A stretch of 32,000 nt of DNA from positions 1,500,001 through 1,532,000 of the forward strand of contig NC_003272.1 in assembly GCF_000009705.1 (NCBI RefSeq). Direction: 5' to 3'. The notes under the pieces were generated by a model. It made no database searches. It had not been told where the DNA came from and was given only the letters and a program-made list of their open reading frames with translations. This DNA comes from Nostoc sp. PCC 7120 = FACHB-418 (GTDB lineage: Bacteria; Cyanobacteriota; Cyanobacteriia; Cyanobacteriales; Nostocaceae). Of the stretch, positions 1 through 13,808 are shown piece by piece (position 1 is the first letter of the stretch; each line of letters opens with the position of its first letter). The position numbers and the translations under genes are program-made.

Positions 1-972
1 TGGGGTAATAAATCCCTAGCAGAAGAATCTAAACAAAAAACCAAAACTGCCCGTGTATTGGCGAAAGCCGGGCAGAATTTAGGCGGTACAGATATTGATA
101 ATTGGTTAGTAGATTACTTTGCCAAAACTCAAGGGCTAGGGATAAGCCCTTTAACAACGCGACTAGCAGAAAGGATAAAAATTCAACTATCAGCCCAAAA
201 CCAAGCCAGTGAAGTTTATTTTGATGATGAAAACTTTGAAAGTTACGAATTGGAATTAAATCGGGATACTTTAGAAAGCATCCTCAAAGAACATGGGTTT
301 TTTGAGCAGTTAGATGATGCAATGGCTAATTTATTACAACAAGCACGCCGCCAAGGAATCGAACTAGCAGATATTAATGCAGTGTTATTAGTTGGTGGTA
401 CAGTACAACTACCCGCAGTGCAGACATGGGTAAAGCAATATTTTCAGCCAGAGAAAATCCGTTGTGAAAAACCATTTGAGGCGATCGCTCAAGGTGCATT
501 GCAACTATCTCAAGGTGTAGAAATCAAAGACTTTCTCTACCACAGTTATGGTGTGCGCTATTGGGATCGTCGCAATCAACGCCACAGTTGGCATTCAATT
601 ATTAAGGCTGGGCAAGGCTACCCCATGAATCAGCCAGTAGAATTGGTTTTAGGCGCTTCTTTGGAGAATCAATCAAGTATTGAATTAATCTTGGGTGAAC
701 TAGGTACAGAGACGGGGGGAACAGAAGTATATTTTGATGGCGATCGCTTAATTACCCGCCGCCTAGATACCGGTGTCACCAGCGTTAAACCCCTCAACGA
801 TAAAGAAGGCGCAAGAACTATAGCCCAACTCACACCACCAGGATTTCCGGGGAGCGATCGTATTAAAATCTTGTTTCAAGTTGATGAACAGCGCTTTTTA
901 CGCATCACCGTTGAAGATTTATTGACTAATGATACTTTGCTAGAAAATCAACTGGTGGCACAGTTGAGTTAA
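1..972 (+). CDS. Hsp70-family (DnaK-like) protein, 3' part; the gene starts upstream of the window
   Basis: Frame 1 is open from base 1 (WGNKSLAEESKQ...) into the listed ORF. It has Hsp70 nucleotide-binding-domain motifs GQNLGGTDIDNW (compare GDTHLGGEDFD) and VLLVGGTVQLPAVQ (compare VLLVGGSTRIPAVQ). The C-terminal part is divergent. Confidence 0.85.
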   Translation, partial: WGNKSLAEESKQKTKTARVLAKAGQNLGGTDIDNWLVDYFAKTQGLGISPLTTRLAERIKIQLSAQNQASEVYFDDENFESYELELNRDTLESILKEHGFFEQLDDAMANLLQQARRQGIELADINAVLLVGGTVQLPAVQTWVKQYFQPEKIRCEKPFEAIAQGALQLSQGVEIKDFLYHSYGVRYWDRRNQRHSWHSIIKAGQGYPMNQPVELVLGASLENQSSIELILGELGTETGGTEVYFDGDRLITRRLDTGVTSVKPLNDKEGARTIAQLTPPGFPGSDRIKILFQVDEQRFLRITVEDLLTNDTLLENQLVAQLS

Positions 973-1067: not shown

Positions 1068-1106
1068 CCCCCTTCCCTCGTAGGGAAGGGGGTTAGGGGG
1101 TTAGGT
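1068..1106. repeat. G/C-rich hairpin repeat, left flank of the DUF559 cassette
   Basis: cccccttccc-tcgta-gggaaggggg is a perfect 10-bp stem, followed by ttagggggttaggt. The DUF559 stop codon (complement of tta at 1101-1103) lies inside the element. A direct copy sits at 1594-1632 and a partial copy at 7465-7498. Confidence 0.8.
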
Positions 1107-1502
1107 CTCTTCACAACAAACCTCAGAAATGAGCATCAAAACCTGATCAATTTCCTGTACAACTTCCTCATTTTTAACTCTTAACAAACGCAGCCCTCTA
1201 GCTAACAAAACCCTGTCCCGTTCTGCGTCATATTCAGCTTGTAATTCATGAATTTTTCCATCCACCTCTATCACTAATCTAGCGGCGTGACAGTAAAAAT
1301 CTGCAATAAAACCATCAATAATTTGCTGACGACGAAAGTGTAAACCATTGAGACGATTACCGCGAAGATGTTGCCAAAGAATTTTTTCTGCTGGTGTCAT
1401 TTGGCGACGAAATTCTTTTGCACGGTGCATTTTATCTGGGTTGATTTTTTGTCCGATAACTATATTGTTAGTTTGGTCTATTTTTGGTGTTGGATTATTC
1501 AT
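1101..1502 (-). CDS. DUF559 domain endonuclease (Vsr / very-short-patch-repair-like fold)
   Basis: ATG start. The translation MTPAEKILWQHLRGNRLNGLHFRRQQIIDGFIADFYCHAARLVIEVDGKIH...ERDRVLLARGLRLLRV matches the DUF559 core pattern (E-x-LW, FRRQ, ADFYC, IE(V/L)DG). Confidence 0.85.
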   Translation of the reverse strand: MNNPTPKIDQTNNIVIGQKINPDKMHRAKEFRRQMTPAEKILWQHLRGNRLNGLHFRRQQIIDGFIADFYCHAARLVIEVDGKIHELQAEYDAERDRVLLARGLRLLRVKNEEVVQEIDQVLMLISEVCCEET

Positions 1503-1581: not shown

Positions 1582-1593
1582 AGCTAGATTTCT

Positions 1594-1632
1594 CCCCCTT
1601 CCCGTGTAGGTAAGGGGGCTGGGGGGTTAGGT
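1594..1632. repeat. G/C-rich hairpin repeat, right flank of the DUF559 cassette (direct copy of 1068-1106)
   Basis: cccccttcccgtgtaggtaagggggctggggggttaggt aligns in the same orientation with cccccttccctcgtagggaagggggttagggggttaggt, with only a few mismatches. Confidence 0.8.
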
Positions 1633-1753: not shown

Positions 1754-3553
1754 ATGAGCATTACACCTCGTGGAATGAGTGTTACAGAAGCTTATCGTCT
1801 CTATCGTTCAGGCAGTTTATTGGTGAATAGGAAGTATCAAAGAAAGCTTGTTTGGACAGTTTTGGAAAAAGAAAAATTAATTGGAAGTATTTTAAAAGGA
1901 TATCCTATCCCGTTGATTCTACTAGCAGAACGCCCTCAGATACACGGTAGTGGCAAATATGAAATTATTGATGGAATGCAACGTCTTAATGCAATTTTTA
2001 GTTATATTGAAAATTCATTTAGTTTTGATATCCAATATTTCGATATAGATGAGTTTTCTTATGCTAAACAATTAGCTAATGATGGCATTATTGAAATTAT
2101 AAGTAACAATAAAGATAACGAAAAACAACAACTAAAGTTGCTGTCTGGTAAAGAATGTGCTGATATTTTAGATTATCAACTTGCAGTAACAGTATATACT
2201 GCGATGGCAGAAGAAGATATCACAGAAGTATTTGGGCGTATTAATTCTAGTGGTAAACATTTAAGTAGCCAAGAAAAAAGACAAGCTGGTGTAACTACTG
2301 CATTCGCAGAATTAGTAAGAACAATATCTATGGAGCTACGTGGAGACGTTTCAGATAAAGTACTACGTCTTACTGATATGCCAGAAATAAGTATTGATTC
2401 ACAAAAAAATAATCAAGGTTATAAGATTAAGGCTGAAGATACAATATGGTGTAAACAAGGGGCTTTAACTGCAAAGTTACTACGTGAAAGTGAAGATGAA
2501 CAAATGATAGCTGATATTTTAGCCTCTATTTTACTAAATGAACCTTTACCAGTTAGCACCGAACGTTTAGATAGTTTATATGATTTGAGCAGCAAATATT
2601 CTCAGGTTTTAGATAGCGCCTTAGCAACATATGGATTTAAAAAATTGACTCAGGATATAATCACAACATTTGCTGTGATGCGAGAAAGTATAGAAGCGTA
2701 TAGTTCAGAAGCAAAAGCTTTATTACGTGTTGTCAATCCAAATAGTAATAATCCAATACGAACAGCATTTTACACTATTTTTATGGCTTTTTTCGACTTA
2801 GTGATTCGGAAAGGACTTTCTCCTGTTGATCCGGAAGGGATAATGAATGGTCTTCGAGGACTTCAGAAAAAATTGGATTTGAGTAGTCATTACACAACAA
2901 CAGATGATCGTAAAAGTAACATTAAGCAAACCATAGGTCTTATTCAAGATTGTTTTGCCAAAAAAGAACCATCGGCTTTAGGACATGGTGTTGAACTTGT
3001 TCTTGATCTTGAAAACTCATTGCGTCGTTCTCGTATAGAAACTTCAAGATATGAATGTAAGCAAGGATTACTCGATTTATCAGCGAAGAGAAACTTAAAT
3101 AAAGCTTTACTAGAAAGAATTGTTGAAACTATTTGTGGTATTGCAAACTTAGGCTCAGAGACCGATGGATATATTCATATTGGTATTACAGATTGTGAAA
3201 AAGATGCTCATAGAATAGAGGAATTAGACAACATAAAATCGATAGAAATTAATGGAAGATATGTTGTAGGAATTGATAGAGAAGCAAGGCTACAAAATCA
3301 GACTGTAGAACAATATGTTAGAGTATTGACTAATGTAATTCACAATTCTTCACTAACTGATCCCTTGAAAACACAAATATTAACCAAGTTTGATACAATA
3401 TCATATAAAGGTTTTTCTGTGATTAGAATTACCATTCCAGTTCAAACTGATGTTTCATTTCTTGGGGAAAAAGTTTTTTCTAGAAAAGATTCCTCTACAG
3501 TAGAAGTACATGGGCGTGAGTTACTAGCTATTTCTAAGCTTTTTCAAAAATGA
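1754..3553 (+). CDS. DUF262 (GmrSD/ParB-like N-domain) protein with a Schlafen/AlbA_2-like C-terminal domain; candidate defence or DNA-modification-sensing protein
   Basis: ATG start, 599 aa. The N-terminus NRKYQRKLVWTVLEKEKLIGSILKGYPIPLILL...YEIIDGMQRLNAIFSYIE fits the DUF262 signature (QR-x-x-VW and a DGQQR-type motif, here DGMQR). The C-terminus ETSRYECKQG...IVETICGIANLGSETDGYIHIGITD...VVGID...GFSVIRITIP...FSRKDSSTVEV fits the AlbA_2 pattern (E-x-x-x-E-x-K, AxAN-x-x-GG-x-hhhGh-D, R-x-x-S-x-T). I saw no His-Me/HNH (DUF1524) motif. The gene is visibly more AT-rich than acnB next door. Confidence 0.8.
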   Translation: MSITPRGMSVTEAYRLYRSGSLLVNRKYQRKLVWTVLEKEKLIGSILKGYPIPLILLAERPQIHGSGKYEIIDGMQRLNAIFSYIENSFSFDIQYFDIDEFSYAKQLANDGIIEIISNNKDNEKQQLKLLSGKECADILDYQLAVTVYTAMAEEDITEVFGRINSSGKHLSSQEKRQAGVTTAFAELVRTISMELRGDVSDKVLRLTDMPEISIDSQKNNQGYKIKAEDTIWCKQGALTAKLLRESEDEQMIADILASILLNEPLPVSTERLDSLYDLSSKYSQVLDSALATYGFKKLTQDIITTFAVMRESIEAYSSEAKALLRVVNPNSNNPIRTAFYTIFMAFFDLVIRKGLSPVDPEGIMNGLRGLQKKLDLSSHYTTTDDRKSNIKQTIGLIQDCFAKKEPSALGHGVELVLDLENSLRRSRIETSRYECKQGLLDLSAKRNLNKALLERIVETICGIANLGSETDGYIHIGITDCEKDAHRIEELDNIKSIEINGRYVVGIDREARLQNQTVEQYVRVLTNVIHNSSLTDPLKTQILTKFDTISYKGFSVIRITIPVQTDVSFLGEKVFSRKDSSTVEVHGRELLAISKLFQK

Positions 3554-3570
3554 AAATTTGATTTTGATAA

Positions 3571-3589
3571 GGTGGGCATTACACCCACC
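3571..3589. terminator. Short GC hairpin between convergent genes (DUF262 gene and acnB)
   Basis: ggtggg-cattaca-cccacc, a 6-bp stem in the 45-nt gap between the two stop codons. Confidence 0.4.
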
Positions 3590-3598
3590 CTAATCAAG

Positions 3599-6229
3599 CT
3601 ATATTAACAAAGCTTGCTCCTCCTGAGAAATCACCCGCCCTTCATCCTCAAAACCGGCAATTTGATCAAAGTTCAAATACCGATATAAATTATCAGCAAA
3701 AGGATGAATCTTACTTGCCACAATATCAAGGTATTCCTGTACTGTGGGAATGCGTCCTAACAACGCGCAAACGGCGGCTAATTCAGCAGAACCTAAATAC
3801 ACTCGCGCACCTTTACCCATGCGATTATTAAAGTTGCGGGTGGAGGTGGAAAATACTGTGGTTCCGTCAGCAACTCGCGCCTGATTTCCCATACACAAAC
3901 TGCAACCAGGCATTTCAGTTCTTGCACCAGCCGCACCAAAAATGCTGTATACACCTTCCTCTTTTAATTGGTGTTCATCCATGCGGGTTGGTGGTGCTAT
4001 CCACAGGCGAGTTTTGACTTCTCCTGCACCTTCCAAAACTTTGGCTGTGGCGCGATAATGACCGATGTTTGTCATACAAGAACCAAGGAATACTTCTTGT
4101 ACTGGGTCATTAGCAACTTCCGATAATAACTTAACATTATCGGGATCGTTGGGAGCAGCGACAATTGGTTCTTTGATGTCGTTTAAATCAATTTCAATTA
4201 TGGCTGCATACTCCGCATCTGCATCGCCTTCTAATAACACGGGGTTAGCTAACCATTCTTCCATTTTGGCGATACGGCGCAGGAGGGTGCGGGAGTCTTG
4301 ATAACCCCGTGCAATCATGTTCTTCAGTAAGGCTACATTGGAACGCAGATATTCGGCGACTGTCTCGACACTCAATTTAATGGTGGAACCAGCACAGGAA
4401 CGTTCGGCGGTAGCATCGGTAAGTTCAAAGGCTTGTTCGACTTTTAAATCTGGTAAGCCTTCAATTTCCATGATGCGTCCAGAGAAGATGTTTTTCTTGT
4501 TCTCCTTCTCTGCTGTTAGCAAACCTTGTTGAATGGCGACATAGGGAATGGCGTTGACAATATCTCGTAGGGTGATTCCTGGTTGTAATTCGCCTTTGAA
4601 TCGTACCAAAACTGATTCTGGCATATCTAATGGCATGACACCCAAAGCGCCAGCAAAGGCGACTAAACCGGAACCGGCGGGAAAGGAAATACCCAAGGGG
4701 AAGCGAGTATGAGAGTCGCCACCTGTACCTACGGTGTCGGGTAATAGCATCCGGTTGAGCCAAGAGTGGATGATACCATCACCGGGACGCAAGGCGACAC
4801 CAGCGCGGGAGGAGAAGAAATCTGGTAGTTCGTGGTGGGTTTTGATGTCAACTGGTTTGGGATAGGCGGCTGTATGACAGAAGGTTTGCAGGACAAAATC
4901 AGCACTGAAACCTAAACAAGCGAGTTCTTTGAGTTCGTCGCGGGTCATGGGGCCGGTGGTATCCTGAGAACCAACGGTAGTCATGATGGGTTCGCAAGAT
5001 GTACCGGGACGGACACCGGGTAAACCGCAGGCTTTACCTACCATTTTCTGGGCTAGGGTGTAGCCTTTACCTGTGTCTGCTGGTGGCTGGGGACGGATAA
5101 ATAAGGTACTGGGTTCTAACCCTAGTGCAAGGCGGGTTTTATCGGTGAGGGTGCGGCCGATTAGTAGGGGGATGCGTCCACCGGCGCGGACTTCATCGAG
5201 GATGGTGTCTGGTTTGAGGCTGAAAGTAGAAATAACTTCGCCGTCTTCGTTGGTGATTTCGCCTTTGTAGGGATAGATGGTAATCACCATGCCGGTTTCT
5301 AACTTGGTGACATCGCACTGGATAGGCAAAGCACCCGCATCTTCAGCTGTGTTGAAAAAGATGGGAGCGATCGCACTACCTAAAATATACCCCCCAGCGC
5401 GTTTGTTAGGAATATAGGGGATATCTTCTCCTGTGTGCCATAAAACTGAGTTAATCGCCGATTTGCGGGAGGAACCAGTACCGACTACATCGCCGACGTA
5501 AGCAACGGGATGTCCTTTTTTCTTTAACTGGGCAATGGTTTCCAAGCTTCCTGGTTGCCTTGACTCTAGCATTGCTAAAGCGTGTAAGGGAATATCCGGG
5601 CGGGTGGTGGCGTGGGTAGCTGGGGATAAGTCGTCGGTGTTGGTTTCCCCAGGTACTTTGAAGACAGTGACGTTGATATATTCTGGTAATTGGGGGCGAG
5701 ATGTAAACCACTCGGCTGCGGCCCAAGAATCAACTACTCGTTTAGCATAGGGGTTGGTTTTAGCTAATTCCAAAATATCGTGAAAAGCATCATACACCAA
5801 CAAGGTTTTGCTGAGGGCGGCGGCGGCGTAGGCGGCTATGGGTTCTTTGCCTTCTCCACCCATTACCAAAGGTGTTTCGGAAGAATCTGATGTGGATGTG
5901 GTAGCAAATTGCAGCAACTCAATTAAGGATTGGACATTGTAGCCGCCTACCATCGTCCCTAGCAACTGCACTGCTTCTATTGGGGAAATGACAGGGCTTT
6001 TAACTTCCTTTTTAGCAACGGCGGTGAGAAATCCGGCTTTGACGTAAGCTGCCGGATCAACACCAGGGGAAACGCGATCGCGCAATAAATGTAATAATGT
6101 ATCGTCTTCACCCTTTGGTGGATTCTTCAGTAATTCGCATAATTCTGATGTTTGTTGTGCATCCAACGGTAAGGGGGGAATCCCTAGTGCTGCTCTTTCG
6201 GCAACGTGTTGATGATATTTTTCTAACAT
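3599..6229 (-). CDS. acnB: Aconitate hydratase B (bifunctional aconitase 2 / 2-methylisocitrate dehydratase)
   Basis: 876 aa, ATG start. AcnB-type N-terminus [26 protein letters not shown]. Fe-S ligand contexts GSCMTN and [10 protein letters not shown]. Length is typical of AcnB. Confidence 0.95.
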
Positions 6230-6484: not shown

Positions 6485-6880
6485 TTAAACGGTTATAGCA
6501 GTTTCATTTGATGTTTTCTCAGAATTAGATTTCAAGCGTGTCAACCTGCTTTTACGGATACGTTCACTATCTCTAACTCCACCTGCAAGTTCATATTCAC
6601 TACTGTTTTTACCATACTTAAACCCAACTCCCATCAACATTTTATCTGAAACCTGATTTAATGTCTTCTCCATTTGATCTAGCTTAATTTTAGAGGAATC
6701 AACTATTGCTATGGCAGCGTTATAATCATCAAGCATTTTTTGAAACTGCTCGATTAATTGCGCCAAGTTTTGTAAGTTGTAAGTATCATCAAACTTAAGC
6801 TTTGGATCAATTGCTTTCAATCCGGCAACTCTAAATTCTGCTTTTTCTAGAATCCGGGAACTACGCTTTTTTCTAGCCAT
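6485..6880 (-). CDS. Hypothetical protein, basic N- and C-termini with predicted coiled-coil centre
   Basis: 131-aa ORF with an ATG start and no competing ORF. No family recognised. It lies in an AT-rich tract. Confidence 0.55.
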   Translation of the reverse strand: MARKKRSSRILEKAEFRVAGLKAIDPKLKFDDTYNLQNLAQLIEQFQKMLDDYNAAIAIVDSSKIKLDQMEKTLNQVSDKMLMGVGFKYGKNSSEYELAGGVRDSERIRKSRLTRLKSNSEKTSNETAITV

Positions 6881-10513: not shown

Positions 10514-13078
10514 TTAGTCAGCCCAAGCAATCAACCTGGGTTCATAAGGACTAGACAGGTGTGGGTGTTTTGGCAATACACGCAAGGATAAACCTTGTAA
10601 ACCAGAGGTGGTGTAAAGGATGTTAGCTGTATAAACACTCAAGCCATTAGTGTCTTGTCCTTGATAATCCATGACTACGGGTATAGCACTGACGATATCG
10701 CCGTTAGCATCAATGGAACCTTGATATAGTTCAACTTGGACATCATCATTGTTTAATGTTGTCAAGTCTACTTTGGCTTTGACAGCAACGGTTTGATTAA
10801 CTTCAATATCTGCACCTGCGGATACATCGATATCTTTGATTTTGATATTAAACCAATGGTCAGTAAGTTTAGCTTTCCAATCTGCTAATTCCTTAGCTGG
10901 GGCATAATTATCAGATGTTAAAGTGTGATAGCGATCGCTTGCTGGGAAGTAAGCTCGTTGTGCATATTCCCTGACCATCCGCGCTGTATTAAAGAAGGGA
11001 CAGTTTAACCGGATAGCGTCTTTCATTTTGGCAACCCAGGGACGGGGTAAACCATCGACATCACGGTGGTCGTAAAATAAGGGTACGACTTCTTTTTCCA
11101 GTAAATCATAGAGAGCATTGGCTTCTACTTCGTCCTGGTAGTTGGGATCATCGTAATTTTCCCCATGTCCAATCGCCCAGCCTGTGCGGACGTAATCGGC
11201 TTCATCCCACCAACCATCTAATACACTCAGGTTCGGTAAGCCATTCATGGCGGCTTTCATCCCGCTAGTACCAGATGCTTCTCTGGGACGGCGGGGTGTG
11301 TTTAACCAAATATCGCAACCAGCAACCATCAACCGGGAAATATGAATGTCGTAGTTGGGAACAAACACTATTTGTTTTTCTAAGTGTTGTTCGCGGATAA
11401 AGTGATTAATTTCGCGGATGAGTTCTTTCCCTGGAATGTCTTTAGGGTGGGCTTTACCAGCGATGACAAATTGTACCTTGCGGTCTTTGTTGCTGAGTAA
11501 AATACGTTTAATGCGTTCGACATCGCGCATCCACAGGGTAGCGCGTTTGTAGGTAGCAAAACGACGGGCAAAGCCTATAGTCAAAGCGTTGGGATCAAGA
11601 ACTTCCTGGGCTTGGAGAATTTCGGAAGCAGAAGCACCGCGATCGCGCAGGTGTTTAACTAAGTGGTCGCGCACATAGAGTATCATGTCCAGGCGACAAC
11701 GTTCGTGATTCCGCCACAACTCCTCATCAGGAATTGCATCCATCCGTTCCCACAATTGGTTATCTGGTGGCGCTGATGACCAATTTGGCCCCAAGTAGCG
11801 ATCGTATAATTCCTGGGTTGATTTGGCAACGCAACTACGGGCATGAACACCGTTGGTAATTGCCGCAATTGGTACTTCCTCAACAGGAACCTTTTTCCAC
11901 AAACCTTGGAACATTTGCCGGGAAACCACACCGTGTAACTGGGCTACACCGTTAGAAAATGTCGCCATCTTCAACGCCAAGACAGCCATACTGAACGGCC
12001 CAGATAAATCGCCTGTATTTTCTCGCCCTAACCCTAAAAATTGCTCTTTGGGTAAGCCAAAGATGTCTGCATAATAACCAAGGTAATACAGAATCTTGTC
12101 AGGAGAAAATAAGTCAATTCCTGCCGGTACTGGTGTATGGGTTGTAAAGATGTTACTCGAACTCACCACCTGTTTAGCTTCCGCATAACTCAACCCCTCT
12201 TCTTGAATTAACAAGCGGATACGTTCTAGGGCTGAGAAGGCGGCGTGGCCTTCATTCATGTGGTAAGCCGTGACTTTATAACCCAAAGCCTTCAACATCT
12301 GCACACCACCAATACCCAACATAATTTCTTGGTGGATACGCATATCGATATCACCACCATAGAGTTGGTCTGTGATGTCGTGGTCGTAGGGGTTATTCGG
12401 CTCAATATTCGTGTCCAGCATATACAGGGGAACTGTTCCCACCTGTACCCGCCAAACTCTGGCATACACCTTGCGTCCGGGGTAATCCACCGCAATCTGC
12501 AATTCTGAACCATCAGGATTGCGTTCTAGGTGCAAGGTCATGTTGTAGAAATCGTTAATCGGGTAACGTTCTTGTTGCCAACCATCAGCATTGAGATACT
12601 GAGCAAAATAACCTTGCTGGTACAGTAAACCCACACCAACCAAGGGTAGCCCTAAATCACTAGCTGATTTTAAGTGATCCCCTGCCAGAACGCCCAAACC
12701 ACCAGAATAAACAGGCAGACAATCTACCAGTCCAAATTCAGCCGAAAAATAGGCGTAACATTCTTTTGGCTGCTGACCGCGTTGTTTGTGATACCAACTA
12801 CGCTCTTGTAAGTAGTCATCTAATTGACGGTTAGCACGATCCAACTGTGCCAGGAAGCCTTCATCTTCCACAACTTCCAAAAGCCGCCCTTGACTGATTG
12901 TACCCAGCATTAGTACGGGATTGTGGTGACTAGATTCCCACAAGTCTGGGTCTAAGCGACGAAATAAATCTTTAGTCTCAACGTTCCAATCCCAGTGTAA
13001 ATTATACGCCAGTCGCCGCAACGGCTCAAGTCGCGGCGGCAAGGAAGGAGAAACATTGAATGTGCGAATCGGCTGCAT
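10514..13078 (-). CDS. glgP: Alpha-glucan family phosphorylase (glycogen/maltodextrin phosphorylase, GT35)
   Basis: 854 aa, ATG start. Pyridoxal-phosphate lysine context EASGTSGMKAAMNG. Also AYFSAEFG and GGLGVLAGDHLKSASDLG, typical of the alpha-glucan phosphorylase family. Confidence 0.92.
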   Translation of the reverse strand: MQPIRTFNVSPSLPPRLEPLRRLAYNLHWDWNVETKDLFRRLDPDLWESSHHNPVLMLGTISQGRLLEVVEDEGFLAQLDRANRQLDDYLQERSWYHKQRGQQPKECYAYFSAEFGLVDCLPVYSGGLGVLAGDHLKSASDLGLPLVGVGLLYQQGYFAQYLNADGWQQERYPINDFYNMTLHLERNPDGSELQIAVDYPGRKVYARVWRVQVGTVPLYMLDTNIEPNNPYDHDITDQLYGGDIDMRIHQEIMLGIGGVQMLKALGYKVTAYHMNEGHAAFSALERIRLLIQEEGLSYAEAKQVVSSSNIFTTHTPVPAGIDLFSPDKILYYLGYYADIFGLPKEQFLGLGRENTGDLSGPFSMAVLALKMATFSNGVAQLHGVVSRQMFQGLWKKVPVEEVPIAAITNGVHARSCVAKSTQELYDRYLGPNWSSAPPDNQLWERMDAIPDEELWRNHERCRLDMILYVRDHLVKHLRDRGASASEILQAQEVLDPNALTIGFARRFATYKRATLWMRDVERIKRILLSNKDRKVQFVIAGKAHPKDIPGKELIREINHFIREQHLEKQIVFVPNYDIHISRLMVAGCDIWLNTPRRPREASGTSGMKAAMNGLPNLSVLDGWWDEADYVRTGWAIGHGENYDDPNYQDEVEANALYDLLEKEVVPLFYDHRDVDGLPRPWVAKMKDAIRLNCPFFNTARMVREYAQRAYFPASDRYHTLTSDNYAPAKELADWKAKLTDHWFNIKIKDIDVSAGADIEVNQTVAVKAKVDLTTLNNDDVQVELYQGSIDANGDIVSAIPVVMDYQGQDTNGLSVYTANILYTTSGLQGLSLRVLPKHPHLSSPYEPRLIAWAD

Positions 13079-13308
13079 AGGTTAGCAAAGCTCCTAGTTT
13101 AGCTATGGATATTGTTCACTGTCTTTCCCCAATGTTGCCAATTCTTTATACTATGTTTGTAAAATTGCCATGACTTTGTTAAGGAATGGAAATCTTTGCG
13201 CCCATACCTGTTAAACTCCGTGCCATCAGTCTTTTTATTACGTTACTGGTTGGCAAAACCTGCATCTTAGGTGTGAAAATCTCAAGATTCTCTTAACGAT
13301 TATTTTAG

Positions 13309-13339
13309 ATCCCCGACTTCTTGGAGAAGTCGGGGATCT
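13309..13339. repeat. Perfect 14-bp palindromic hairpin (gatccccgacttct-tgg-agaagtcggggatc); possible terminator for the gene at 13354-13677
   Basis: Read directly. It lies 15 nt beyond that gene's stop. There is no clean U-tract on either strand, so it may simply be a dispersed palindromic repeat. Confidence 0.45.
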
Positions 13340-13353
13340 TGCAGGATAATTTT

Positions 13354-13677
13354 TCATGTACCGAGGGAAGGCTGATCTGGTGAGTTTTTGGGCATTGTCA
13401 GCGCGACTGCGGCGGCAAATGTCATCTCGGCGGCTATTTGATAAGCAAGTTTAATGTTAGACTTCTTGTCTCTGCTGTTATTAGTTGTGTAGGATTTATA
13501 GTTGAGTGATTCTTGCTTGACCCTGCCAGAGGCGATCGCCCGTTGTAAGATAATCAACGCATCTACATCTTCTGAATCAAAGTTTGTTTTTAGCAGCACT
13601 TGAATTTGGTTTTGATCAGCAATACTCAAATAACCAGTATTTAAAGCTTGTTGGGCGATGTCCTGAATTAAAACCAT
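13354..13677 (-). CDS. Hypothetical protein
   Basis: The ORF-track start at 13689 is TTG. The first ATG gives MVLIQDIAQQALNTGYL... No family recognised. Confidence 0.5.
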   Translation of the reverse strand: MVLIQDIAQQALNTGYLSIADQNQIQVLLKTNFDSEDVDALIILQRAIASGRVKQESLNYKSYTTNNSRDKKSNIKLAYQIAAEMTFAAAVALTMPKNSPDQPSLGT

Positions 13678-13704
13678 AATCCGTGCCAACCATGTAAGTT
13701 TATA

Positions 13705-13718
13705 GTAATACCTGATAC
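13705..13718. promoter_or_regulatory. NtcA-type palindromic box GTA-N8-TAC
   Basis: GTAATACCTGATAC matches the NtcA consensus exactly. This 6-base-specified motif is expected about once per 4 kb by chance, so on its own it is weak evidence. Confidence 0.25.
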
Positions 13719-13808
13719 TGCGAATTTTTGGGCGATCGTAGAACCTTGAACGAAGGGAAGTATATCAGGATTGTTTCCAAAATCTACAACAACTGACAGC
13801 CAAAACAC

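Follow-up and report, generated by a model that had tools for sequence, protein, structure and literature searches.

A DUF262-Schlafen fusion gene beside acnB in Nostoc sp. PCC 7120, a probable stand-alone anti-phage gene at a fixed cyanobacterial site

The window analysed here, a 32,000-nucleotide stretch of Nostoc sp. PCC 7120 (NC_003272.1, positions 1,500,001 to 1,532,000), encodes a 599-aa protein that is a further member of a known family of defence proteins, the DUF262-Slfn fusions. We put at roughly 0.7 the probability of the complete reading, in which this is a stand-alone prokaryotic Schlafen (pSlfn) acting against phages, with a DUF262 sensor that triggers RNA cutting, encoded by an accessory gene at the acnB site. 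The initial annotation had treated the architecture as unnamed. It has since been catalogued: Perez Taboada et al. (Nat Microbiol 2026, PMC13056530) list DUF262-Slfn among 55 prokaryotic Schlafen architectures, such fusions making up 1.8% of 5,930 prokaryotic Schlafens. One of them, EcoSlfn7 of E. coli UC4224, lowered T7 plating 538-fold, its strongest effect, and protected against other phages as well. Since the architecture was thus shown to protect E. coli in 2026, the Nostoc protein belongs to a known family, not to an unnamed system; name and phenotype are published, whereas the mechanism is not. That study assayed seven pSlfn genes and only two, EcoSlfn7 and RorSlfn5, were protective, so that architecture alone is no guarantee of a phenotype. 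New here are the tail-to-tail site of the cyanobacterial copies beside acnB, the pattern of their alleles, their pseudogenes and the frequent absence of the gene.

The open reading frame was recovered exactly as first annotated, together with QRKLVW (aa 29-34), DGMQR (aa 73-77), ETSRYECK (aa 429-436) and the other motifs quoted, GIANLGSETDGYIHIGITD at aa 462-480 and FSRKDSSTVEV at aa 575-585 (Table 1). An identical copy of the protein is encoded on 17 public contigs. The AT-richness of the gene is likewise borne out, its GC content of 0.331 and GC3 of 0.18 being the lowest of the 20 ORFs in the window (window average 0.409; acnB 0.482; Hsp70-like ORF 0.42). The description of the gene as an orphan, alone between Hsp70 and acnB, is imprecise, since a divergent DUF559 gene is its immediate neighbour and lies between it and the Hsp70-like ORF. 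On the other side acnB is convergent, with 45 bp separating the two stop codons. A hairpin between the convergent stops may, as read from the sequence, serve as a shared terminator; it went unflagged in a consensus terminator scan because it has no T-run, and the promoter and terminator scan gave no convincing match for the DUF262-Slfn gene. Within the window, no recognised defence island surrounds the gene. On another contig, L001, the gene is identical and the upstream region differs, the point of divergence coinciding with a repeat (window position 1544); as this may reflect an assembly join, it is not counted as a structural variant.

Table 1 Features of the DUF262-Slfn gene and its surroundings (positions in the window).
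Feature	Position	Strand	Evidence or remark
DUF559 gene, 133 aa	1101-1502	minus	Pfam, E=6.7e-36
DUF262-Schlafen fusion gene, complete, 599 aa	1754..3553	+	ORF list, ATG start; Pfam PF03235 + PF04326
DUF262 / GmrSD_N domain (ParB-fold NTP-binding), aa 19-178	1808..2287	+	PF03235, E=3.1e-25, 89.9 bits
YQRKLVW motif of DUF262, aa 28-34	1835..1855	+	aligns to QREFVW of BrxU
DGMQR motif of DUF262, aa 73-77	1970..1984	+	aligns to DGQQR of BrxU
Variable insert inside DUF262 domain, aa 86-135	2009..2158	+	entropy and model confidence
FGRINSSGKHLS, third conserved DUF262 motif, aa 160-171	2231..2266	+	aligns to FIRMNSGGTTLS of BrxU
Middle region, mostly helical, aa about 200-420	2351..3013	+	AlphaFold2 model, helices pLDDT >90
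Schlafen / AlbA_2 nuclease-type domain, aa 429-583	3038..3502	+	PF04326, E=2.6e-7, 31.6 bits
ETSRYECK, the Ex4(E/D)xK Schlafen catalytic motif (E429, E434, K436)	3038..3061	+	definition in PMC13056530
D480, further conserved acidic residue	3191-3193	+	D or E in 105/106
Hairpin GGTGGG-CATTACA-CCCACC between the convergent stops, possible shared terminator	3571..3589	.	read from sequence
acnB	3599-6229	minus	convergent with the DUF262-Slfn gene

Both domain calls of the initial annotation, DUF262 at the N-terminus and AlbA_2 at the C-terminus, exceed their Pfam cut-offs (33.2 for PF03235 and 25.3 for PF04326). Prokaryotic Schlafens are catalogued by a PF04326 match of more than 100 aa with E<0.001 (PMC13056530), and the match found here spans 155 aa at E=2.6e-7. 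The same domain pair is present, in precomputed assignments, in nearly all of the best 120 homologues; NCBIfam holds no model for the 599-aa protein. The middle region matched no family in the Pfam search, and DUF1524 (PF07510) and HNH families gave no Pfam match even at E<=1, in line with the earlier observation that a His-Me nuclease is missing.

Conservation was assessed across 106 diverse family representatives; those beyond the query's own clade share just 28-48% identity with it. Y28, Q29, R30, L32 and W34 of the first DUF262 motif show no variation, D73, G74, Q76 and R77 of the second are the same in 106/106, and in the third F160, N164 and G167 are invariant while R162 is kept in 104/106. 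The Schlafen catalytic motif is retained just as strictly, with E429 and K436 in all 106 and an E or D at position 434 in 105. As Ex4(E/D)xK and all three DUF262 motifs are kept across these sequences, both halves of the protein have been selected as active sites. Family-wide invariance extends to R26, R176, R196 and D248; the last of these, with the conserved E249, lies in the middle region, which is otherwise the most variable part across the family (2.9 bits). Among the cyanobacterial orthologues, the highest entropy falls on the insert within the DUF262 domain (1.40 bits, against 0.4-0.5 in the DUF262 core), where model confidence is also lower (pLDDT 75-77).

An AlphaFold2 model built from the 106-sequence alignment reached a pLDDT of 92.6 and a pTM of 0.88, superseding an earlier run on a 34-sequence cyanobacterial alignment in which the N-terminal half was poor (pLDDT 67). 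The Foldseek check proposed at the outset agreed with both domain assignments. The N-terminal part returned BrxU and CTP-bound ParB structures as top matches, and the C-terminal part returned the AlbA_2 proteins 3LMM and 2KYY (probability 0.99-1.0) together with SLFN13 (5YD0), SLFN5 (7CUX) and SLFN11 (9ERD). For the whole chain, however, Foldseek gives weak E-values (above 1e-3), and the Schlafen sequence match is modest at 31.6 bits. By sequence, a single-sequence search of the PDB found no match, and a family profile reached BrxU (7P9K) and no Schlafen structure.

These matches bear on an alternative that we consider unlikely, namely that the protein is a GmrSD-like type IV restriction enzyme, in which DUF262 would recognise modified or foreign DNA and the AlbA_2/Schlafen domain would bind or cut phage DNA. 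To our knowledge, every characterised DUF262 enzyme (GmrSD, BrxU, SspE) couples the domain to DNA cleavage. The N-terminal domain of the Nostoc protein is a genuine GmrSD_N domain whose nearest relative by structure and sequence is BrxU. DNA binding is also a property of some Schlafen N-domains, the title of 7CUX describing SLFN5-N as “involved in ssRNA cleaving and DNA binding”. Its C-terminal domain, however, keeps the Ex4(E/D)xK motif of a ribonuclease site, and the Pfam search found neither a His-Me nor a PD-(D/E)xK motif. T7 DNA is not known to be hypermodified; as EcoSlfn7 is most active against this phage, a strictly modification-dependent sensor is disfavoured. In addition, the characterised prokaryotic Schlafens cleave tRNA: RorSlfn5, a fusion to an Ig-like domain, cuts the anticodon arm once activated by its trigger (PMC13056530), and the CRISPR-associated Cash proteins also cleave tRNA (abstract of PMC13462974). 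The initial annotation of AlbA_2 as a nucleic-acid-binding module is understated, the domain being better read as a Schlafen RNase effector with an Ex4ExK active site.

The DUF262-Slfn family is widespread yet patchy across phyla, with 145 relatives among 185,579 species represented by a single genome apiece, and it is often found on prophages and plasmids. Two E. coli DUF262-Slfn proteins of prophage and plasmid origin, both homologues other than the phage-tested EcoSlfn7, give alignments of about 590 aa that span the whole Nostoc protein, with an identity of 30-33% (E=7e-87 and 8e-98). One homologue occupies the slot between baseplate and virion-morphogenesis genes in a P2-like prophage, one adjoins pemIK on an IncFII plasmid, and one on a K. 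pneumoniae plasmid has a TIR-domain protein alongside and Lit nearby. About 50 full-length copies occur in IMG/VR, and phrog_26759 is a full-length match. Such prophage, plasmid and viral settings are typical of defence cargo and therefore count for an anti-phage role. In 80 of 80 loci the flanking DNA is less AT-rich than the gene, as in a Streptomyces example with a GC of 0.52-0.55 against 0.68-0.73. PADLOC and Pfam scans of the neighbours of non-cyanobacterial homologues found IetA, dGTPase, type I methyltransferases, MADS and DrmD as well as housekeeping genes; these scans had no control set, so we do not claim an enrichment of defence genes.

All-against-all clustering of 1,135 neighbour ORFs from 80 loci revealed no conserved partner gene. 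Two neighbours alone recurred, acnB in 25 cyanobacterial loci and DUF559 in 8 loci, which led us to reject a two-gene system as the general rule. Nor is DUF559 an obligate partner, since ~80% of the cyanobacterial loci lack it, as do all loci from E. coli, viruses and other non-cyanobacterial sources. The proposal of a single-polypeptide defence protein is strengthened by this result, together with the homologues that lie in a P2-like prophage, are carried by plasmids or have defence genes nearby.

The plasmid copies raise the alternative of a selfish module for addiction or exclusion, in which a toxic nuclease persists because its loss or activation kills the cell, or because it excludes competing plasmids and other mobile elements, phages not being its main target. 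A close E. coli allele does lie in the maintenance region of IncFII plasmids, directly after the pemIK toxin-antitoxin genes and near parM; 798 of 5,426 complete genomes contain DNA matches to the query gene, 132 of them with at least 80% of it covered, and many plasmid copies are truncated. We nevertheless regard this reading as highly improbable: across the 80 loci the gene has no conserved antitoxin-like neighbour, in cyanobacteria it is chromosomal and sits at a fixed site, and EcoSlfn7 protected on its own against phages, toxicity not being reported in the available part of that article (PMC13056530).

In cyanobacteria, the tail-to-tail arrangement with acnB was found in 25 species-level genomes from several orders (Nostocales, Chroococcidiopsis, Microseira, Xenococcaceae, Waterburya, Crocosphaera and Zarconia), with orthologues 64-91% identical across orders. 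Against close orthologues dN/dS is about 0.1 (0.09-0.18), near the value for acnB, which indicates that the protein is functional. Several copies, in several lineages, are split by stops or frameshifts or are shortened. Of 80 metagenomic cyanobacterial acnB loci one carries an orthologue, and it is absent from all 56 of the 56 metagenomic acnB loci with at least 1.5 kb to inspect. Divergence of the gene does not follow that of its neighbour. Between loci L011 and L021, AcnB is 97.5% identical (dS 0.19) whereas the DUF262-Slfn gene is only 72.5% identical (dS 1.02), with identity falling sharply just beyond its 3' end; the opposite pattern is seen between the window and locus L008, where dS is 0.48 for the DUF262-Slfn gene and 0.76 for acnB. 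As the alleles do not track acnB divergence, pseudogenes occur and the gene is absent from most sampled acnB loci, these data suggest that the cyanobacterial copies represent a polymorphic accessory gene at one fixed site.

The same locus can be viewed as home to a domesticated cyanobacterial protein, a DndB-like or ParB-like regulator or an RNA-processing enzyme with a housekeeping or stress function beside acnB. The arrangement kept in 25 genomes, the identity across orders and the acnB-like dN/dS all fit such a role, and 30% of pSlfn genes lie away from defence genes and may have non-immune roles (PMC13056530). A conserved housekeeping gene would, however, sit poorly with its absence at nearly all sampled cyanobacterial acnB loci, with just 145 relatives in the species-level set, with copies split or truncated in several lineages, with allele divergence that departs from acnB in both directions, with a GC3 far under that of native genes, and with full-length family members on prophages and plasmids in other phyla. 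We therefore judge domestication to be very unlikely. As a separate observation, conservation within the clade is higher than is usual in defence genes, and the gene is syntenic with a core gene, which runs counter to the defence reading and would fit a domesticated cellular role.

In the anti-phage reading that we prefer, the DUF262 domain, its variable insert and the helical middle region would together form an NTP-dependent sensor or switch, and the infection cue detected would most likely be phage nucleic acid. Sensing would release the C-terminal Schlafen nuclease (E429, E434, K436 and probably D480), which would cut tRNA or other RNA, so that translation is shut down and phage yield collapses. 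The present data show the domains, motifs and fold, homology along the entire length to DUF262-Slfn proteins of enterobacteria, and the population genetics of the locus. From the literature come the anti-phage phenotype of the architecture (EcoSlfn7) and tRNA cleavage by a different pSlfn (RorSlfn5). Which cue the Nostoc protein senses, whether it depends on NTP and which RNA it cuts are matters that we infer; the likely mechanism would be an NTP-dependent DUF262 sensor that licenses tRNA cleavage. In cyanobacteria, alleles at the acnB site would be exchanged through recombination and sometimes lost. A bolder version, possible yet doubtful in our estimate, is an old polymorphic immune locus at the 3' end of acnB, with divergent alleles that persist and pass between lineages through homologous recombination in the conserved flank, a DUF262 domain acting as an NTP-gated nucleic-acid sensor that licenses an RNase, and the recurrent divergent DUF559 gene (a Vsr-fold endonuclease) as a possible optional addition. 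If true, a sensor in the style of type IV restriction would have been rewired towards translation shutdown, acting through an RNase and not a DNase.

Cyanobacterial anti-phage defence is poorly charted by experiment, and a role for Schlafen nucleases in bacterial immunity has only just been shown. In the locus described here, bloom-forming and symbiotic Nostocales offer a clean, single-gene and strongly conserved representative of the DUF262-Slfn class, with a high-confidence model and defined catalytic and NTP-site residues ready for mutation. How DUF262 controls a Schlafen nuclease is unpublished, and the invariant residues are direct targets for that question. Allele exchange anchored at acnB would illustrate how a defence gene can keep a single chromosomal position across large evolutionary distances, and would help to predict cyanophage host range.

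Among known systems, GmrSD, BrxU and SspE share with the Nostoc protein an N-terminal DUF262 domain with the QR, DGxQR and FxRxNxxG motifs, BrxU (7P9K, 7P9M) being its best PDB match by structure and sequence. Their C-terminal DUF1524 His-Me (HNH) DNA nuclease is missing from the Nostoc protein, which has a helical region and a Schlafen RNase-type domain in its place. The NsnA model of Menshen in PADLOC matches over aa 2-193 (E=6.4e-27), and PD-T4-2_A matches with E=4.4e-15; both models match the DUF262 part only. For NsnA, the match covers profile positions 45-213 of 385 alone, corresponding to the N-terminal ~190 aa, and the neighbourhoods of 80 loci show no conserved NsnB, NsnC or other second gene.

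The fold of the C-terminal domain is shared, by Foldseek, with the mammalian proteins SLFN11, SLFN13 and SLFN5 and with the bacterial structures 3LMM and 2KYY, and the catalytic motif is common to pSlfns and the C-lobe of SLFN11 (PMC13056530). Sequence similarity to mammalian Schlafens and AlbA_2 proteins is seen by the Pfam profile only, and the Nostoc protein is without the two-lobe N-domain, linker and helicase domain of the mammalian proteins. It also differs from putative transcriptional regulators of the 3LMM type, with their AlbA_2-HATPase_c_4-HTH order, in that AlbA_2 is its last, C-terminal domain; Pfam found no HATPase_c_4 or HTH match in it.

RorSlfn5 is similar in being a Schlafen nuclease effector with a conserved acidic/lysine motif. 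Its own Slfn domain, however, is N-terminal (E15, D20), and its C-terminal Ig-like sensor binds a phage tail assembly chaperone (PMC13056530), whereas in the Nostoc protein the nuclease-type domain is C-terminal and the presumed sensor is the NTP-binding DUF262 domain. The closest likeness is to the DUF262-Slfn class itself, including EcoSlfn7, which has the same N-terminal PF03235 and C-terminal PF04326 domains, the same Ex4(E/D)xK motif and the same single-gene organisation. Compared with the E. coli DUF262-Slfn genes, the Nostoc gene belongs to a cyanobacterial host and is chromosomal, at a fixed site adjacent to acnB instead of on a prophage or plasmid, and its cyanobacterial clade is far more conserved internally.

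The predicted product of the DUF262-Slfn gene carries two domains, DUF262 and AlbA_2, both above the curated Pfam thresholds, as the initial annotation had proposed, and every motif quoted there was found where it had been placed. Neither DUF1524 nor HNH nor any further nuclease family came up in a Pfam scan to E <= 1, which agrees with the claim that the usual His-Me/DUF1524 nuclease is missing. With a GC content of 0.331 and GC3 of 0.18, against a window mean GC of 0.409 and 0.482 for acnB, the gene is AT-rich, as claimed, and has the highest AT content among the window's 20 larger ORFs. It had been described as sitting alone between an Hsp70 gene and acnB; this does not hold, as a DUF559 gene lies divergently upstream. 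The defence role suggested for the protein appears to stand. The suggestion that its architecture was unnamed falls, because DUF262 fusions have been catalogued and tested (Perez Taboada et al. 2026, PMC13056530), and the architecture is thus already named, with a phenotype.

That catalogue reports 5,930 prokaryotic Schlafen (pSlfn) proteins and 55 domain architectures, of which DUF262 fusions make up 1.8% of the proteins, and gives Ex4(E/D)xK as the conserved pSlfn active-site motif. The window protein has the Slfn domain, the fusion and an exact copy of the catalytic motif (ETSRYECK), and it is homologous to E. coli members from end to end: BLASTP against two E. coli proteins, neither of them EcoSlfn7 (the DUF262-Slfn protein tested against phages in the same paper), gave 30–33% identity over the whole length (E = 7e-87 and 8e-98). 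Judged by sequence, and by comparison with E. coli members other than EcoSlfn7, it adds a cyanobacterial member to the pSlfn DUF262-Slfn class. By analogy with this class, the single-polypeptide defence reading appears to be right. Neither PADLOC (2023) nor NCBIfam holds a full-length model for the protein, and the PADLOC models NsnA and PD-T4-2_A match its DUF262 part only.

Features of the window and of compared loci
Feature	Position	Strand	Remark
DUF262-Slfn gene	1754-3553	+	599-aa uninterrupted ORF, ATG start
GmrSD_N/DUF262 (PF03235)	aa 19-178		Pfam E=3.1e-25, over curated threshold
SLFN_AlbA_2 (PF04326)	aa 429-583		Pfam E=2.6e-7, 31.6 bits; cut-off 25.3
DUF559 gene	1101-1502	-	133 aa, Vsr-like endonuclease fold; Pfam E=6.7e-36; divergent, upstream of DUF262-Slfn gene
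44-nt direct repeats	1063-1106, 1589-1632		86% identical; bracket DUF559 gene
Hsp70-like ORF	58-972	+	at window edge; Hsp70 profile positions 219-368 only, E=2.5e-16
Lysine/serine-rich ORF	6485-6880	-	131 aa, downstream of acnB; no Pfam family
DUF262/GmrSD_N protein, L178 (metagenomic)	~3041-3496		just 3' of acnB; NsnA-like (PADLOC)
DUF262/GmrSD_N protein, L198 (metagenomic)	~3797-4882		just 3' of acnB; NsnA-like (PADLOC)
Allele, E. coli CRE10 chromosome (L088)	11959-13734		P2-like prophage cargo slot, baseplate assembly protein V to virion morphogenesis protein
Allele, E. coli plasmid pEC96-CTX-M-215 (L091)	4289-6061		IncFII maintenance region, directly 3' of pemIK

A first AlphaFold2 run with 34 cyanobacterial orthologues yielded a poor model of the N-terminal half; a second with 106 diverse family representatives (28–48% identity to the query once its own clade is set aside) gave a pLDDT of 92.6 and a pTM of 0.88. 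The top Foldseek match in the PDB was BrxU (7P9K/7P9M), a GmrSD-family type IV enzyme, and the N-terminal part also matched CTP-bound ParB proteins. The C-terminal part matched the AlbA_2 proteins 3LMM and 2KYY (probability 0.99–1.0), followed by the SLFN13 N-domain (5YD0), SLFN5-N (7CUX) and SLFN11 (9ERD). Whole-chain E-values were weak, as expected with a multi-domain query, and match identities were in line with Pfam. The family sequence profile matches BrxU too, with aligned motifs QRxxVW, DGxQR and FxRxNSxGxxLS; it is beside this likeness that the weightiest alternative, a DNA-targeting type IV-like enzyme, has to be set.

Across the 106 representatives, R26, Y28, Q29, R30, D73, G74, Q76, R77, F160, N164, G167, R176, R196 and D248 are invariant in the DUF262 and middle parts, as are E429 and K436 in the nuclease part, while position 434 is E/D and D480 is D/E in 105 of 106 each. 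Because of this invariance, both the predicted NTP-binding site and the predicted nuclease site look active and under selection. The most variable segment among cyanobacterial orthologues is the DUF262 insert (aa 86–135); family-wide, variability peaks in the helical middle region (aa 266–420).

The gene lies tail-to-tail with acnB in 25 species-level genomes (median gap 48 bp) spanning Nostocales, Chroococcidiopsis, Microseira, Zarconia, Xenococcaceae, Waterburya and Crocosphaera, and its upstream side differs nearly everywhere among them. We compared 80 metagenomic cyanobacterial acnB loci with AcnB 67–89% identical to the window's. An orthologue was present in one (L202) and in none of the 56 with at least 1.5 kb inspectable downstream; the loci lacking it include several Nostocales-like ones with AcnB at least 85% identical. 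The DUF262-Slfn gene is not core in cyanobacteria. In these loci the slot 3' of acnB holds Uma2-type endonuclease-like proteins, DUF559, other DUF262 proteins, a type I restriction subunit (type I REase), a DRT-type defence reverse transcriptase, DNA methylases or ordinary metabolic genes, which suggests a variable position that sometimes takes defence cargo, counted without a control set and with no enrichment claimed. The L178 and L198 DUF262 proteins are unrelated to the window protein, being only 27–32% identical to its N-terminus.

Split or truncated copies occur at six cyanobacterial loci (L029, L041, L042, L048, L053, L068). Extra ORFs, small or large, are inserted between the gene and acnB at L009, L012, L013, L018, L029 and L030, for example ORF pairs of ~113 and ~140 aa at L029 and L030, a lone ~113-aa ORF of the same cluster at L009, and a ~646-aa ORF in Calothrix/Dulcicalothrix loci. 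The 131-aa ORF downstream of acnB has counterparts with 76–82% identity at the matching place in several other Nostoc loci.

DUF262-Slfn protein identity correlates overall with AcnB identity (r = 0.65, 190 pairs). Individual alleles do not follow the divergence of the flank. Between the Nostoc loci L011 and L021, AcnB is 97.5% identical (dS 0.19) and the DUF262-Slfn gene 72.5% (dS 1.02), with DNA identity rising from 62–81% within the gene to 92–98% just beyond its 3' end; between the window and locus L008 the pattern is reversed (gene dS 0.48, acnB dS 0.76). From these opposing patterns, alleles seem to be exchanged through recombination while the gene keeps its fixed site beside acnB. The gene's dN/dS is 0.09–0.18, and the protein has therefore been kept functional. 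In a class already known, this polymorphism anchored at acnB had not been remarked on before.

A protein search returned 2,835 relatives; nearly all of the best 120 are 580–610 aa with the same two Pfam domains, and the source-named ones among these 120 are all cyanobacterial (64–91% identical). An exhaustive search of 50%-identity representatives gave 4,114 clusters at E <= 1e-3, of which 278 reach E <= 1e-30, and alignments remain full-length down to ~30% identity; named family members include Streptomyces, Peribacillus, Methylobacterium and Synechococcus. A survey of one genome for each of 185,579 species detected only 145 relatives, at ~50% identity, including cyanobacteria, Streptomyces, Marinobacter, Methylomonas, Heliobacterium, Bacteroidia and Limisphaerales. 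Although its occurrence is very patchy, the protein shows strong conservation.

Full-length homologues are plasmid-borne in Polaromonas (52%), Citrobacter freundii (44%), lactobacilli and Klebsiella. One E. coli allele sits in a P2-like prophage in 28 of 5,426 complete genomes (in two E. coli genomes split by IS1), and a second, at ~69% DNA identity, on IncFII plasmids directly downstream of pemIK. Of the 5,426 genomes, 798 have DNA matches to the query gene, mostly on plasmids, and 132 cover at least 80% of the gene; truncation is common among the copies, and a few bear just the annotation 'RNA-binding domain-containing protein'. A K. pneumoniae plasmid homologue adjoins a TIR-domain protein, near a Lit exclusion protein. 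An addiction or exclusion module is third in weight among the alternatives. IMG/VR viral contigs carry ~50 full-length copies, and one PHROG of unknown function matches the protein end to end. The gene is AT-richer than its flanks at 80 of 80 genome loci, by up to 19 points in Streptomyces. No neighbour is conserved outside cyanobacteria among these loci, which fits a single-gene system. A domesticated cellular function, the second alternative by weight, would explain the synteny with acnB and the conservation, but patchiness, pseudogenes, composition and mobile relatives speak against it.

Upstream, the DUF559 gene and its repeats, each a CCCCCTTCCC...GGGAAGGGGG hairpin, look like a small mobile cassette because the direct repeats bracket the gene. 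A divergent DUF559 neighbour occurs at 8 other cyanobacterial loci (Nostocales, Pleurocapsales) and nowhere else in the ~2 Mb of loci examined. Among six public contigs listed with an identical DUF262-Slfn gene, five (L002–L006) begin just 200 bp ahead of it. In the sixth, L001, identity is 100% from window position 1544 on, and the sequence before that point is unrelated. This break (region 1544–1632 of the window) coincides with G/C-rich hairpin repeats (GACCTCTCCCCCAACCCCTCTCC...), probably multi-copy in the genome; either a misassembly or a genuine structural variant could account for it. In none of the related loci did tblastn place a match to the Hsp70-like ORF on the upstream side of the gene, and the upstream flank is therefore not syntenic.

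We infer that the window protein may be an NTP-gated DUF262 sensor that switches an RNase. The DUF262 module, variable insert and helical region would bind NTP together with a ligand that arises from infection, phage nucleic acid being the most plausible one; a resulting change of conformation or oligomeric state would switch on the Schlafen nuclease, which would cut tRNA or other RNA and so stop translation. The domains, active-site conservation, fold and homology to the enterobacterial class come from this analysis; the architecture's defence phenotype is brought in from the literature by analogy, as is the cleavage of tRNA by a different pSlfn. In PMC13056530, RorSlfn5 binds the T5 tail assembly chaperone through an Ig-like sensor and then cleaves the tRNA anticodon arm, and the mechanism is worked out there for this protein only, an architecture other than DUF262-Slfn. 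Other 2026 papers report tRNA cleavage by CRISPR-associated Schlafens and a Schlafen-Argonaute system.

Compared with known systems, the window protein resembles BrxU and GmrSD in the fold and motifs of its N-terminal DUF262, whereas the DUF1524 nuclease of GmrSD is missing, which rules out GmrSD membership. From RorSlfn5 it differs in its presumed sensor, carrying DUF262 in place of the Ig-like domain.
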